From a virus: DNA of 64,000 bases. The position numbers were made by a program, and so were the translations under genes. Positions 23,501-33,384 of this stretch are shown piece by piece. Where the stretch lies: positions 1 to 64,000 of the IMG/VR virus record IMGVR_UViG_3300028840_003749. One strand, 5' to 3'. The notes below the pieces were generated by a model that was not told the DNA's origin, made no database searches, and saw nothing but the letters and a program-made list of their open reading frames with translations. Position 1 is the stretch's first letter. Every line of letters begins with the position of its first letter.

Positions 23501-23670
23501 GTTAGAGCCGTTTCGCTGCCACCGAGCGACTCCTTCATCATGGTCTCGCCGTTGAAAGGAAGGCCCTCCGTGTAGAATGCGATGAGCAGGTTGCTCAACG
23601 GACCTTTCTTCTTTTTCGGCATTGCTCGTTCAATCGTTACCATTACCGCGCTCTCCTCGTCTTCAATCAA
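20560..23670 (-). CDS. Multidomain glycosyltransferase(GT4)-SAM methyltransferase-glycosyltransferase(GT2) fusion with helical C-terminus
   Basis: GT4: GGSETALTSVAKELVKRGHDV and EISCIGALEAMACGLVPI. Methyltransferase: FLDIGCHCGTMT ... VIFAGEWLEHV. GT2: CCMIAKNEAENMLRCLRSV...IIVCDTGSFDGT...WIDADE. Confidence 0.8.
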   Translation of the reverse strand: MIEDEESAVMVTIERAMPKKKKGPLSNLLIAFYTEGLPFNGETMMKESLGGSETALTSVAKELVKRGHDVKVFCKCGSKGEGTFDGVDYVDCSKFRQVSMMFEWDALIVSRFAQALGSRTKAKLNILWCHDILVERSTFAGMLWQTEDVWLLSQYHKNQYLEQFDDGVEREAFDKLSHLTTNGVDLELVDGARLSTEPHSDHGNGVSEEEGASTALRSNRLIYTSRPERGLLVLLRDIWPRLLQFDPDLELAVCWYDYQNMPLPEDVKGIHQMCDVLIQQSPNVTKLGSLSKPDLYREMQKADLWLYPTAFPEISCIGALEAMACGLVPITTADFALNETVGEGCGVLIEGDHESIEYQDEFVFQTSRLLLDEDERERMARRGRLYVEEHYQWSQVAEQWEQRIQHLFTERMEQNKPQVLESLFRYADVMAAKEFATRHGLEEGVERANKILESAEKPEEEPGDLVNLDPENHTWGLTERFQRCLKIIVEKEPKTFLDIGCHCGTMTVAVSNAAPECKVTGMDFTQAYIDWCAVHLSKVGLYPENVEFTLNRLENLVEEEGQEHKYDVIFAGEWLEHVVDTAGALRRIQRLCKVGGTVVLTLPNGPWAHFDLSKYVYNNGGHVHYFDMQDIQDLFGMQPDLTVEFQQDHVTPKGDLVGNWIISWTNNGKPCGLPDYDRKFLMQVPYQSLSCCMIAKNEAENMLRCLRSVRGIADEIIVCDTGSFDGTQAIAASMGAKVFQIPWNDSFGDARNRSIEEAEGDWILWIDADEVLLWPDRLKKYLRSKMFHGFVIRQNHLTLDMPDVKPDRPCRVFRNHRGYKFTGHIHEHIEDVNRGPFDQPVRPAVVLPDVDIAHFGYITEDMRRGKCSERNLRLLLRDRAEHPERRLTLVLLQRDYINITNWELQKNGFKPTERIAQWLLMIGRIHRENFTDRQDVYHELSYTLYQQSLSILGRLGVCLPETGMPPFEVALGLGGSVAGFESELVNPDRRWYSTREEFLEFMEYKGLQLVDGMGVKECREAESEDAEEPLSAQASE

Positions 23671-24748
23671 CCTTCCAGGGGTTTGAGTACTTATGCCTCA
23701 TTTGAGGAAACCTCGGCTGCCTCTCAGAGACGGTCCTGCTTCTGCCCTTCGACTCCAATGTACTCATGTCATACACTACCCACTCGTCAAGCGCTCCAAC
23801 TCCTTTCGCAGTATGCCTCGCAAACGTTCCCGGCTTCGGCGTGTACTCGAGAACAGCAATGTCACTATCGCGCACCTTCGCCAAAGCCCTCCCATCTATA
23901 TCGACGATATACGGATCGAACGGCCCTCCTGCCTCGTATCTGTACTGCAACCACCGAGAGAACGCTCGAACCTTGAAGCTCGCGACCTCACTCGGCGTTC
24001 CTTTCCTTTCAACAATCCCCTTTCCGCTCTCGTATTCTCTGACGATGCCCTTCTGAATCTTGTCGAGTGTCAGGCCTTCGTTGGCGATCCAGGTTATCCA
24101 TCGTTTGTCCCACGGCTCGTCCGCTCCCTTTCCTTGTTCTGCCGCTTTCCTCAGTTCCGCAAAGGATACATCTCCTCGCATTACCGATGCAGCCTCCTTG
24201 ATGGCTTTCTGAGCTGTGGCTGCGCACTCCGCACTTCCGGTGAAGCTGATACCGTAACCGCTGCCACCTCCAAGACCAACGCCCTTTTCCGCTCCTCGGT
24301 CTCTTCTGGACTTCAGTCCTTCCTTCTCTACAGAAGAAGCCGCTGTCGTTACATGGTACAGAGTCGAACCTTCGTTCAAAGGTTCCCAGAAGCCGTTGGA
24401 GCTTGTCTCGTATCCAAACTCTCTATACCTGTGAGACTCGGCGCTCCACGATTTGAATGTCCAAGAGCTATTCCAAGCCGAATACTCCAGAGGAATCTCG
24501 CCTCTGCTCATGGCCCCCGCCACGGAAAGCTCCCACGCGATCTTGGCTTCACGTTCTTTGCGACGACCTTCGTCACTCCTGTCGCTGAGGTCTACCTTCT
24601 TCCGAGCAGCGTATTCCTCCCACGAGGTCTTCCATGCGTCAGGATCGGCGAGGCCTTTTCGTCGCCGCTGTCCTTTTCCGCCTTTTTTCGCGTAGACGGT
24701 TGCGAACAGGAACGCGAGTTGCTTTTTCGTCAGCTTTCTTCCTGGCAT
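23663..24748 (-). CDS. Leader-tagged protein with PARP-like ADP-ribosyltransferase domain
   Basis: Leader MPGRKLTKKQLAFLFATVYAKKGG. H-Y-E-like motifs TLYHVTTAASSVEKEGLK, GSGYGISFT and LDEWVVYD resemble PARP HGS..I..GL, G.GIYFA and NEYIVYD. Confidence 0.55.
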   Translation of the reverse strand: MPGRKLTKKQLAFLFATVYAKKGGKGQRRRKGLADPDAWKTSWEEYAARKKVDLSDRSDEGRRKEREAKIAWELSVAGAMSRGEIPLEYSAWNSSWTFKSWSAESHRYREFGYETSSNGFWEPLNEGSTLYHVTTAASSVEKEGLKSRRDRGAEKGVGLGGGSGYGISFTGSAECAATAQKAIKEAASVMRGDVSFAELRKAAEQGKGADEPWDKRWITWIANEGLTLDKIQKGIVREYESGKGIVERKGTPSEVASFKVRAFSRWLQYRYEAGGPFDPYIVDIDGRALAKVRDSDIAVLEYTPKPGTFARHTAKGVGALDEWVVYDMSTLESKGRSRTVSERQPRFPQMRHKYSNPWKVD

Positions 24749-24827
24749 CCTCGTGCCTCTTCCCTATCGCTCGGAGGATTTTGAGTTCTCGCTTCGAGTA
24801 CCGCTGGAGCTTTGCCATAGCAATTCC

Positions 24828-25016
24828 TCACCAGCCATCATCCCCGCTCTCCGGATGCGGATTGAGTGAATGCGGATCGGACTTGTAACTATCCTTCCTC
24901 TTCCCCCTGCCGCGCTTGTTTCTCCGACGTTTCTTCTTGGTCAGGCCTGCCTTCCTGAGCAGCCTGCCAAGCCTGAGTCCTTTCTCGAACGCCTTTCTGT
25001 CGTTCTTAGCTGCCAC
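24828..25016 (-). CDS. Small very basic protein
   Basis: 62 aa containing KKKRRRNKRGRGKRK; untagged. Confidence 0.45.
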   Translation of the reverse strand: MAAKNDRKAFEKGLRLGRLLRKAGLTKKKRRRNKRGRGKRKDSYKSDPHSLNPHPESGDDGW

Positions 25017-25686
25017 GCCTCGATCTCCTCATAGCTTCCTTCCGAAGCTCCCTCTCCACGCGTCTCGCCACACTCGGCGTCAACATCGATAGCACTCTGG
25101 TCATCGCAGCCATCGCCGCCAGTGTCGGCACCTCAGAGAATGCCTTCTTGTACTTGTCCAGGTGGAACATCACGCACCTGGAGATGTACCTATTCCCCAC
25201 TCCTCCTTCTGGAGTAGGAGGCTGCTGTGAGGAGATAGGTCCAAGGTTATATGTCCCCTCATGCATGAATCGCGCATATTCCACGTTGTCTGCGATGAAG
25301 CCTTTCAGTCTGTGCTTACGCAGCATGCCTCCTACAGCCGTATTCACCCTCTTCGAAATCAGCCTGCTCGTCCTCAGCCACTCCTGCTCCGCTCTCGCAA
25401 ACGTTACGGCCAGAGGAAGCACACCTCGCGGATTCGTCACGTCCGCTGTGATCGCCGAAGGTGTTGGTCCCATCCTCTCCGTGATCTGCTGACCTTCGAC
25501 CTCACCGTAGATTTCGCTCCTTAGCATGGCGGACAGAATCGGAGCGTTGGCCACGGCCCGCTCCGATGCGTGCGCGACGACGTCGGCCATCGTTTGGACG
25601 GTCTGCTCGACCAGCGCCTCCTTCAACTGCTTGAAGGTGACGATTAGCTCCTTGACGCCCTCGACTTTCATGGTGATCTTAGCCAT
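25006..25686 (-). CDS. Head-tail joining / tail completion protein (HK97 gp10-like)
   Basis: N-terminal MKVEGVKELIVTFKQLKEAL ... ERAVANAPILSAMLRSEI pattern resembles the gp10 family; position fits. Confidence 0.5.
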   Translation of the reverse strand: MAKITMKVEGVKELIVTFKQLKEALVEQTVQTMADVVAHASERAVANAPILSAMLRSEIYGEVEGQQITERMGPTPSAITADVTNPRGVLPLAVTFARAEQEWLRTSRLISKRVNTAVGGMLRKHRLKGFIADNVEYARFMHEGTYNLGPISSQQPPTPEGGVGNRYISRCVMFHLDKYKKAFSEVPTLAAMAAMTRVLSMLTPSVARRVERELRKEAMRRSRRGS

Positions 25687-32627: not shown

Positions 32628-32630
32628 TGT

Positions 32631-32975
32631 TCAACCACTCCATGCCATCCGACCAGCGTTTGGACCTGACGTCATTCTTACGAAGGCGCTCGACCTTCGC
32701 CTCTGCCTCCGGACTCCGAGGTACCTCCCGATGTAGCGTCCGAGCAGGCTCTTTCCTGTCCGAGCCTGCGCTCTCCGCATGGTCGGCCTTCGTATCGGAT
32801 TTCGGCCTCTGGTCATCGCCTTTGCAAACGGCTTCGGCTTTCCCTTCACGTACGTGCGTCGGTATCTCGGACTGATGGTCCGACCTTTCGTCATGCCACC
32901 TCTCGTGCGCCGCCTCGGAACAGGCCGTTCAGAGGCTCTTCCGGATATCTGTCTCCCTCTCCTCAATCGCACCAT
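32631..32975 (-). CDS. Arginine-rich basic protein (untagged)
   Basis: 114-aa ORF exactly filling the gap between two genes, extremely Arg-rich. Confidence 0.4.
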   Translation of the reverse strand: MVRLRRGRQISGRASERPVPRRRTRGGMTKGRTISPRYRRTYVKGKPKPFAKAMTRGRNPIRRPTMRRAQARTGKSLLGRYIGRYLGVRRQRRRSSAFVRMTSGPNAGRMAWSG

Positions 32976-32976
32976 G

Positions 32977-33384
32977 CTACTTCCTCCTACTCCGGCTTGC
33001 TCTCGGCTTCCTTCGAGGCTTCGCTCGCGTTCGGACCTTCTTGGCCTTGGCTTCCCGTTCCTTGCGAATCCTCTTCTCGTTCGCCTGCTGCTTTTTCAGA
33101 GCGACGTCATAGTGCTCGTTCACCGCCCGGATGGCAGCAGCCTCAGACAGGAACTGCTTGGTCTTGCCGCGCTTCATGCCGCCGATGCGAGCCGACCAGT
33201 ATCCGCCACCGATCTGCTTAACAGTCCCGAGCGACTGCTTCCTGGCCTTCTTGTTCGCCAAGGTGTACCAGATTGAGTACCGGTCCGCCTTCGACAGATA
33301 CTTCTTGCGAGCAGATCCCTGTCCTTTGATTTTGGCGAAGATGGCAGCCAGCTGCTTTTGCGAAAGTCTCCGCTTCTTAGCCAT
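32977..33384 (-). CDS. Leader-tagged small basic protein
   Basis: Leader MAKKRRLSQKQLAAIFAKIKGQGSARKK; Lys-rich C-terminus. Confidence 0.65.
   Translation of the reverse strand: MAKKRRLSQKQLAAIFAKIKGQGSARKKYLSKADRYSIWYTLANKKARKQSLGTVKQIGGGYWSARIGGMKRGKTKQFLSEAAAIRAVNEHYDVALKKQQANEKRIRKEREAKAKKVRTRAKPRRKPRASRSRRK

Follow-up and report, generated by a model that had tools for sequence, protein, structure and literature searches.

The window analysed here comprises the first 64,000 nucleotides of the virus record IMGVR_UViG_3300028840_003749, out of a contig of 94.7 kb (source samples ENA ERZ27256783 and SRR6963591), and contains a family of genes that share a short N-terminal peptide, here called the tag; tag counts for this phage cover the window. 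We identified 11 minus-strand open reading frames (ORFs) with the pattern L-[ST]-x-x-Q-L-A-x-[ILM]-F-A placed 3-7 residues from the start codon, and all of the leader-tagged ORFs described in an initial annotation of this DNA are among them. A six-frame regular-expression search with QLA.[ILMV]FA returned exactly 11 matches, all on the minus strand and 7-10 residues past the start of an ORF, and the same pattern had no match in 50 mononucleotide shuffles of the window. A hidden Markov model (HMM) built from the tags was run on all stop-to-stop segments of the window and of every locus fetched from elsewhere. True tags scored 26-45 bits and always lay at an initiation codon, and internal or chance matches reached 26 bits at most. 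The tagged proteins were also called independently in the ENA, JGI and Logan assemblies, and a purine-rich ribosome-binding stretch precedes every tagged gene.

As a peptide, the tag takes the form M-x(2-6)-L-[ST]-[KRQ]-x-Q-L-A-[AFY]-[ILM]-F-A, with the consensus M-x-x-L-S-R-K-Q-L-A-A-I-F-A-K; about 12 conserved residues are followed by a flexible basic/Gly linker. The two sub-flavours reported earlier, one on large enzymes and the other mostly on small basic proteins, are evident. Specifically, LTKKQLA[FY]LFA.VY is found on a protein resembling ADP-ribosyltransferases (ART-like), on two zincin-like proteins and on one kinase-like protein, and LS[RQK]xQLAA[IM]FA[KR] is found on small basic proteins, on a nucleotidyltransferase-like (NTase-like) protein and on the other kinase-like protein. 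In the tag, an S/T-x-x-Q helix-capping box precedes a small hydrophobic face (L, L, I/L, F), and the peptide is predicted to be helical, at low confidence, in both AlphaFold2 (AF2) models that were made (ART-like and NTase-like). A role as a membrane anchor is ruled out by a hydrophobic stretch of just 6 residues and a hydrophobic moment of 0.05-0.43.

Each conserved position of the tag is encoded by two to four different codons across the 11 genes: four at both conserved Leu, at the Ala after Q-L and at the Ala after Phe, and two at the fourth conserved Ala. Over all pairs of tags, 279 codon pairs are synonymous but different, 189 are identical and 192 are non-synonymous, and the mean nucleotide identity of the 36-nt tag core is 0.64. 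The genes at 27886-28293 and 28295-28711 share an exact stretch of 52 nt that covers the ribosome-binding region and the tag, and the exact shared stretch is at most 26 nt in every other pair. Since conserved residues are encoded by varied codons, selection acts on the peptide, and the codon evidence excludes that the likeness arose in general through an RNA element, through gene conversion or through duplication in the recent past. There is, thus, protein-level selection on one N-terminal peptide that is borne by unrelated bodies.

All genes of the window named below are on the minus strand. The longest tagged protein, of 361 amino acids (aa; 23663..24748, MPGRKLTKKQLAFLFATVYAKKGG...), carries the tag in its first approximately 20 codons, at the high-coordinate end of the gene (tag HMM 35.3 bits). 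Its motifs LYHVTT, GYGISFT and LDEWVVYD have an H-Y-E order that resembles ADP-ribosyltransferases, and it had been called PARP-like. That call did not hold up beyond the order of the motifs: we found no match in Pfam, PHROG, NCBIfam or the PDB, the AF2 model made without an alignment was unusable (predicted local distance difference test (pLDDT) 37.6), and BLASTP aligned the protein colinearly with a PARP1 fragment, though without significance (E=0.21).

Two tagged proteins are zincin-like. The first, of 291-292 aa (25679..26557, MAKLTKKQLAYLFAVVYKRQRG..., tag HMM 41.0 bits), has a TTG followed immediately by an ATG, the latter being the start in public gene calls, and contains HEVGH with EHQAEAIEAY downstream. 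The second, of 283 aa (26775..27626, (M)GKSLTKKQLAYLFAVIYKRQKG..., tag HMM 32.8 bits), has a GTG start, contains HELGH and REHFAEAFKMY and ends in SRRRRRK. The zincin assignment has partial support, from the HExxH of both paralogs, which also share a downstream E-x-x-A-E-A motif, and from a family-level match. Family-level matches of the second protein were weak, with the anthrax lethal factor family ATLF of Pfam at E 7.4e-5, under its gathering score, and Peptidase_M90 at E 0.0017. Two small untagged genes, 26554-26775 (73 aa) and 27628-27876 (82 aa), are interleaved with the two zincin-like genes; the arrangement resembles the pairs of toxin and immunity genes in polymorphic toxin loci, and the products could be candidate inhibitors that silence the peptidases in the producing cell.

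The Pol-beta-type NTase-like protein (30067..30507, 146 aa, pI (isoelectric point) 10.9, MARLSRKQLAAIFAKMSGRER..., C-terminus QKRRKK) has a tag scoring 43.0 bits. Its AF2 model is of low confidence (pLDDT 58, predicted template-modelling (TM) score 0.45), but the top 50 Foldseek matches in the PDB are all NTases of the Pol-beta superfamily (E 2e-3 to 4e-2, TM about 0.4), and GG51-52, D63-x-D65 and D108 are at the places expected for the catalytic motifs. Taken together, the model and its matches give the Pol-beta call moderate support.

The two kinase-like proteins are encoded side by side at a second locus. One (43739..44611, 290 aa, MSRRPLSKKQLAAMFARMASERR..., C-terminus RRKRQRR) matches the Pfam family PI3_PI4_kinase above the cut-off (E 9.5e-7, 29.4 bits versus 27.1), in agreement with its earlier assignment, as well as phrog_3162 (E 1.1e-10). 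The other (42839..43735, 298 aa, GTG start, (M)SKLTRKQLAFLFATVYKDKK..., C-terminus TRRKKGR) matches HipA_2 (E 1.2e-4), PI3_PI4_kinase (E 8.6e-4) and phrog_3162 (E 8.8e-10). A DRHxxN catalytic-loop motif occurs in both, as GNSDRHGFN in 42839-43735 and GNTDRHDGN in 43739-44611. When the kinase-like protein was used as a query for homologs, the sole matches were the query and its paralog.

The remaining five tagged proteins are small and basic. Three are encoded in tandem at 27886..28293 (135 aa, pI 11.9, MARLSRAQLAAIFAKAGKSEK...), 28295..28711 (138 aa, pI 11.7, MARLSRAQLAAIFAKARAGEGK..., C-terminus QQQRRK) and 28713..29141 (142 aa, pI 11.7, MARLSRRQLAAIFAKAAAAQKG..., C-terminus RRRRRRK), the start of the last overlapping the stop of the MuF-like gene described below. 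The others are at 30510..30800 (95-96 aa, pI 11.7, MAKLSRKQLAAIFAKARATEK..., C-terminus RKRKRK) and 32977..33384 (135 aa, pI 11.7, MAKKRRLSQKQLAAIFAKIKGQG..., C-terminus SRSRRK). Overall, the pI of the small tagged members is 10.9-11.9, and seven of the 11 tagged ORFs have at least six Lys/Arg in their last 10 residues, a feature seen in just 3 of the 75 minus-strand ORFs without a tag (Fisher p 6e-6, Mann-Whitney p 1.6e-6). The high pI and the polybasic C-tails fit DNA-associated internal proteins. When the tags are removed, most bodies are unrelated, as had been claimed, but three pairs are alike: the zincins (E 5e-10), the kinases (E 1e-52) and, weakly, the small basic proteins 28713-29141 and 30510-30800 (E 9e-4). 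The tagged protein of 32977-33384 also holds GGGYWSARIGGMKRGKTKQFLSEAAAIRAVNEHY, and an untagged ORF of 53 aa at 30797-30958 holds QKQGNRWYVRSHKK; judged by eye, these segments resemble AP2-like or other small beta-sheet DNA-binding modules.

The genes around the tagged ORFs form a tightly packed late head, neck and tail operon, in line with the earlier placement of all members in the head and head-tail module. In the order of transcription it starts with the large terminase (49972-51519, phrog_5653 E 3e-17), the portal (48420-49946, phrog_145 E 4e-57), a scaffold-like acidic protein between the portal and capsid genes (47339-48337, pI 4.4), the major capsid protein of the SU10 MCP family (46172..47296, Pfam SU10_MCP E 2e-78) and the two tagged kinase-like genes, so that terminase, portal and capsid genes make up a head module upstream of the kinase pair. 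Next come large fibre-like proteins, a head-tail adaptor of the Ad1 type (33812..34327, phrog_477 E 1.3e-16) that forms the upstream boundary of the main tag cluster, and the cluster itself. The order ends with a glycosyltransferase/methyltransferase fusion, a head-tail connector protein (20193..20579, phrog_2595 E 1.5e-9) that forms the downstream boundary of the cluster and, following it, a tape-measure-like gene (15335-18391, phrog_28 E 1.6e-4). All 11 tags, in a set of approximately 86 minus-strand ORFs, have the capsid gene on one side and the connector and tape-measure genes on the other, and neither the regular expression nor the tag HMM found a tag in the other approximately 40 kb of the window. 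Gene gaps within the cluster are mostly -20 to +9 nt, and promoter- and terminator-like sites in the cluster do not exceed shuffle expectation. Given these tight gaps and the lack of such an excess, it is very probable that the tagged genes and the virion genes are expressed together.

In the middle of the main cluster is an untagged MuF-like minor head protein (29141..30070, 308-309 aa), confirmed as MuF-like by phrog_4611 (E 9.3e-18) and by tblastn matches to annotated minor capsid or head proteins (E 1e-13 to 7e-6); the Pfam family Phage_min_cap2 matched below its cut-off (E 0.0014). Its gene is about 18 kb from the portal gene and does not adjoin it. Other untagged members of the cluster are a phosphodiesterase/nucleotide-pyrophosphatase-like protein (31053..32006, 317 aa in the public gene call; Pfam Phosphodiest E 4.6e-7, 30.2 bits versus a cut-off of 23) and two very basic small proteins of pI 12.0, at 32631-32975 and at 32003-32269 (C-terminus KRKRRRKTL), which flank an ORF weakly similar to head-tail connectors (32271-32627, phrog_3881 E 0.006).

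Several neighbouring genes have features of their own. Just downstream of the major capsid gene, the adjacent genes 44883-45545 and 45549-45836 share a different N-terminal motif, (Q/R)xxLxxLVPSP[YF]AFxLG[ED]xVxD (local alignment score 71 over 32 residues), after which they diverge; this may be a second shared N-terminal anchor, for example of capsid decoration proteins with a common capsid-binding arm. The fusion named above (20560-23670, 1036 aa) joins a GT4-type glycosyltransferase, a class I methyltransferase and a GT2-type glycosyltransferase, is located within the structural operon immediately downstream of the last tagged gene, and could modify the virion or the tagged proteins. A protein of 1579 aa and pI 4.1, encoded between a 459-aa protein and the head-tail adaptor (34704-39443), contains 23 copies of EEVG[VIA], three repeat modules with SDGLH[TS]W[DE]E at residues 312, 574 and 926, and H[EV]H..GHGLD at residues 351 and 613; it had no Pfam or PHROG match. 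Downstream of the tail genes is a radical S-adenosylmethionine (SAM) protein (9362-11014, phrog_1802 E 9e-31), and from their N-terminal sequences 7471-8292 and 3084-3953 appear to be a radical-SAM/QueE-like ORF and a DNA methyltransferase-like ORF, respectively. Upstream of the terminase region are two tiny adjacent Arg-rich ORFs (52361-52549 and 52595-52759, pI 12.0), both starting with M/V-INH and weakly similar to each other (score 60).

We searched for the tag outside this phage and found that it is very rare. In agreement with the view that the motif belongs to no described system, Pfam searches with the full proteins and with isolated 40-aa N-termini at E<=10 gave nothing relevant on the tag, no profile or sequence of PHROGs, NCBIfam or the PDB covered it, a literature string search for QLAAIFA had no occurrence, and none of 50,697 isolated phage genomes matched the tag or the kinase-like protein in tblastn. 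An exhaustive profile search of 1.84 billion representative proteins returned 13 matches at E<=1e-3, of which 11 are the phage's own proteins and two are small metagenomic proteins. Follow-up of these two, together with a broader profile, revealed two further uncultivated lineages of low GC content, B and C, where it likewise occurs strictly at the N-terminus, on varied small proteins of 57-158 aa (basic in lineage B, for which the pI was calculated) with variable C-terminal parts.

Lineage B (GC content 0.35; L002, L088, L089, L003; data sets JGI 3300023222 and 3300023443 and SRR34846502) has 9-11 small tagged genes in tandem per contig, with tag variants that include LSKKQLAAIHAQ, LSKRQLRAVFAK and SKKQWAAIHAK and protein pI values of 9.5-11.2. 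The content of the array differs between strains L002, L088 and L089. Lineage C (GC content about 0.37; L096, L090, L091, L004), from groundwater and other samples (Hainich groundwater ERZ12926xx; SRR326967xx; SRR12113392), has the tag as MRQRKLTKKQLRAIFAK or MGKRLTKKQLAA[IM][FY]AK on at least four different proteins of 64-70 aa. In L096, a weak terminase-like match (E 0.0015) about 5 kb upstream of a tagged gene is the sole hint of morphogenesis genes in either lineage. Two genes downstream of a tagged gene, L004 (691-1170) and L091 (809-1285) encode a conserved membrane protein of 158-159 aa with an EExxFRG motif and a weak Rce1-like CAAX-protease match below the cut-off (E 0.0013), which could be a candidate intramembrane protease.

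Other apparent occurrences of the tag were rejected. Degenerate DNA patterns for KQLAAIFAK and KQLAAI[FHYL]A[KQ] in IMG/VR gave chance matches alone (an internal KQFAAIFAK, and KQFAAIYAK in a 20-aa mini-ORF), and the 72 loci with L[ST]xKQLAAIxA in metagenome and genome contigs were all internal or chance matches with no N-terminal array. The genes of 309 and 310 aa that precede the L002 and L090 arrays match the MuF-like protein in length by coincidence; they are dissimilar to it and to each other. Rad52-like annealing proteins on metagenome contigs L015, L026, L039 and L042 have a C-terminal domain, placed after a Pro-rich linker, that begins LS[SN]KQLAAI[WF]AI..(K/R)G[YF], so that the helix start of the tag is used internally. 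This likeness may be a clue to where the tag came from or to its type of structure, or it may be due to convergence.

Given the genomic and sequence analyses presented above, we suggest that the tag is a virion-incorporation signal that works like the capsid-targeting sequence (CTS) of phage T4 and the signal of P1 DarB without being homologous to them, a reading that we consider plausible if somewhat short of probable. From gene position, charge and analogy we infer encapsidation, ejection and binding to an assembly component. The tag is proposed to be a short N-terminal docking helix. The tagged genes would be transcribed and translated alongside the head, neck and tail genes, and the tag would dock on a common assembly component, for which the acidic scaffold-like protein 47339-48337, the MuF-like minor head protein, the portal and the inner capsid surface are candidates. 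The basic linker and, in this phage, the polybasic C-tail would anchor the proteins to packaged DNA. When the particle infects a new cell, its genome would be accompanied by the small basic proteins and by the enzymes, of which two are kinase-like, two zincin-like, one NTase-like and one possibly an ADP-ribosyltransferase, and these proteins would act prior to phage gene expression.

We favour this reading because the tag is strictly N-terminal, with a hydrophobic face after the helix cap and a flexible basic linker, because the unrelated bodies turn over between strains and are expressed late among structural genes, and because basic proteins of a DNA-binding-like character are combined in the cargo with enzymes of host-modifying types. 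We also count in its favour the kinase-, zincin- and NTase-like enzyme types, which would be useful mainly when delivered, and the recurrence of the tag in two lineages, at the N-terminus of many small basic proteins. The position of a MuF-like gene in the middle of the array is counted likewise, MuF being the usual carrier of phage-delivered effectors (PMC5512222, PMC5576092). A broader proposal seems to us possible but doubtful, namely that the tag is a portable, protease-independent signal for cargo loading and ejection with which several unrelated uncultivated phage lineages load interchangeable effector cassettes.

Several observations weigh against virion incorporation. There is no cultured isolate, the search of the 50,697 isolated phage genomes was empty, and virion association is a matter of context. 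As had been noted at the outset, no prohead protease was detected by Pfam or PHROGs among the ORFs tested, a subset that included 47339-48337, and neither was a gp21- or gp22-like family; a T4-style cleave-and-release step is therefore unsupported, and the A/G-x-E found in four of seven LS-flavour linkers is suggestive at most as regards prohead cleavage. The tag helix is weakly amphipathic (hydrophobic moment 0.05-0.43), which gives no independent support to any particular binding mode. The initial annotation had also asked whether the tag recurs beside MuF or portal genes, and this was not borne out: PHROGs, Pfam and tblastn revealed no recognisable MuF, capsid or portal gene near the arrays of lineages B and C. 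With neighbours that cannot be annotated as structural, the link between the tag and a structural module rests on one genome. In a phmmer comparison of the ORFs of the window with those of lineages B and C, over the available sequence, the tags alone were in common, so that there is no common receptor candidate. Lineage B proteins lack the polybasic C-tail. Finally, the relatives of the MuF-like gene (L005-L007, 36% identity) have no tagged genes; neither they nor the relatives of the capsid gene (L011-L013) showed the tag or another recurrent N-terminal motif.

The extreme basicity of the tagged proteins (pI 10.9-11.9 here and 9.5-11.2 in lineage B) and the enrichment of polybasic C-tails would also be expected of late DNA- or nucleoid-binding proteins that are not packaged. 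The tag helix would then belong to a nucleic-acid-binding or self-association module, and the proteins would act in the producing cell, either on phage DNA, which they would condense or organise ahead of packaging, or on the nucleoid of the host, which they would disrupt. The Rad52-like annealing proteins, with a similar helix inside their C-terminal domain, point the same way, as does the resemblance of its S/T-x-x-Q-L-x-x-I-x-A helix start to what we take to be the first helix of HU-type proteins. The conserved residues, however, are hydrophobic (L, L, I/L, F, A), which favours protein-protein docking over DNA contact, the tag is also borne by enzymes of 280-360 aa without an obvious DNA role, and no DNA-binding family of Pfam matched it when the isolated 40-aa N-termini were searched. 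We consider this explanation unlikely.

Alternatively, the tag may be a short linear motif that docks onto a host or phage hub unrelated to the virion, such as the host sliding clamp, a chaperone or a protease adaptor, in the last case as an N-terminal degron that sets the time at which the proteins are removed. Its core, QLA[FY]LF or QLAAIF, resembles what we assume to be the clamp-binding motifs QL[SD]LF and QLxLxL/F. A strictly N-terminal element of about 12 conserved residues ahead of a flexible basic/Gly linker would suit such docking, and the tag is portable across three unrelated lineages with no other gene in common, as a host-directed motif would predict. Yet 11 late-operon proteins aimed at one host hub lack precedent, and conservation exceeds a clamp-type core, extending to L-[ST]-[KR] before the Gln and to the Ala positions. 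Moreover, clamp-binding motifs bind in an extended form, whereas the Ala-rich tag is predicted to be helical (AF2, low confidence). This possibility, too, strikes us as improbable.

A very unlikely reading takes the tag for a leader, or recognition peptide, through which a modifying enzyme of the phage would act on the tagged proteins, comparable to the leaders of ribosomally synthesized and post-translationally modified peptides (RiPPs). The 1036-aa glycosyltransferase-methyltransferase-glycosyltransferase fusion (20560-23670), which adjoins the last tagged gene, and the radical SAM proteins further downstream, such as that at 9362-11014, would be candidate enzymes, and the small tagged proteins of lineages B and C (57-158 aa), with their variable C-terminal parts, are reminiscent of RiPP loci with multiple precursors. 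On the other side, the three lineages have no modifying enzyme in common, tagged proteins of 280-360 aa with enzyme folds of their own are unlike RiPP precursors, and the tag is far shorter than typical leaders. Conservation at the nucleic-acid level, as a translational enhancer or a regulatory RNA site at the 5' end of every gene, or as a recombination handle for cassette shuffling, might account for the 52 identical nt in 27886-28293 and 28295-28711 and for the strain-variable arrays of lineage B, but it is scarcely credible, since such an element, like gene conversion, is largely refuted by the codon usage of the tags (core identity 0.64, up to four codons per residue, and more synonymous differences than identical codons).

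Phage-delivered proteins decide the first minutes of infection, in which they counter defence, take over host machinery and protect incoming DNA, and the way in which cargo is chosen to be packaged is known from few model phages, T4 and P1 above all. If the tag is a virion-incorporation signal, it would allow candidate virion cargo to be read from the metagenomes of lineages without a cultured member, would show that the idea of one address for diverse proteins arose independently of T4, and would give a small handle with which to load foreign proteins into phage particles. Under the broader proposal, no such signal would have preceded it outside the myoviruses related to T4 and P1. Tailed phages would then have in the tag a general "address label" with which to deliver proteins, combined in this phage with a polybasic C-terminal DNA anchor. 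The tagged set would be a split counterpart, loaded in trans, of polyvalent proteins and MuF-fused toxins, and the tag could provide a handle of approximately 15 residues for packaging foreign proteins into siphovirus-type particles. The rarity of the tag (13 of 1.84 billion proteins), set against its presence in three lineages of very different base composition, is of interest in itself.

The closest parallel is with the internal proteins of T4 (IPI-III, Alt), a diverse set of proteins that have in common only a CTS directing them to the scaffolding core (PMC3012670). As in T4, a short N-terminal peptide is the sole common feature of diverse, fast-changing, tandem-encoded proteins that are made late, mostly small and DNA-associated, and that include a host-modifying enzyme, in T4 the ADP-ribosyltransferase Alt (PMC3012670, PMC5512222). 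The unrelated bodies, the common N-terminal signal and the variable tandem locus, the last seen in L002, L088 and L089, are all found here. The systems differ in that the T4 CTS acts through a scaffolding core of gp22 and is removed by gp21, the prohead protease, and no protein like either was detected among the ORFs tested here. The present phage is siphovirus-like with an SU10-type capsid protein and T4 is a myovirus; the polybasic C-tail is not part of the T4 signal; and encapsidation is proven in T4 and inferred here. The T4 CTS reads MKTYQEFIAE. The tag is unrelated to it in sequence, and we found no Pfam or PHROG match to the T4 internal protein families.

P1 DarB offers a second parallel, as its first 30 residues suffice for capsid targeting (PMC9024508). 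In P1, an N-terminal signal of at most 30 residues is enough to direct a protein, including a reporter, into the capsid, and the large enzyme that it loads is delivered together with the phage DNA (PMC9024508). The P1 signal, however, is on one protein and needs other Dar/Hdf components, whereas one motif is on 11 proteins in this phage. The tag has no sequence similarity to the DarB signal, and no Dar family was among the general Pfam and PHROG matches, although no search aimed at Dar was made.

MuF-associated toxins and polyvalent proteins resemble the tagged set in that ADP-ribosyltransferase, zincin-like and nucleotidyltransferase effectors are tied to MuF in the morphogenesis module, with effector cassettes that turn over (PMC5576092, PMC5512222). 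In those systems the effectors are fused to MuF or the portal, or joined in a giant polypeptide; in this phage they are separate tagged genes. The MuF-like protein has 309 aa without an extension, and Pfam and PHROGs revealed no MuF (PF04233/PF06152) or portal domain in the tagged proteins. It is possible that separate tagged effectors beside a short standalone MuF are a split version of MuF-fused toxins. Elsewhere, 85% of muf genes are near a portal or terminase gene (PMC5576092); here the muf gene is not directly downstream of the portal gene but about 18 kb away, and the tag also occurs without a detectable MuF in lineages B and C.

More distant likenesses are with the cargo-loading peptides of encapsulins and the payload signals of contractile injection systems, in which a portable peptide with a flexible linker loads unrelated cargo. 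Encapsulin shells have the HK97 fold and contractile injection systems are phage-tail-like particles, and neither carries a genome. Encapsulin loading peptides are usually C-terminal and of another consensus, and we found no homology. RiPP precursors are further removed, since the tagged bodies reach 361 aa and contain enzyme motifs and no modifying enzyme is shared by the three lineages. Overall, the tag system resembles the T4, P1 Dar and MuF-toxin systems in its working and is a member of none: the tag has a different sequence, gp21- and gp22-like proteins were not detected among the ORFs tested, and the effectors are encoded separately from MuF, which in turn is away from the portal. The concept is not new, because T4 already has diverse internal proteins with a common capsid-targeting sequence (PMC3012670); the tag itself appears to be undescribed and very rare, yet it extends across three lineages.

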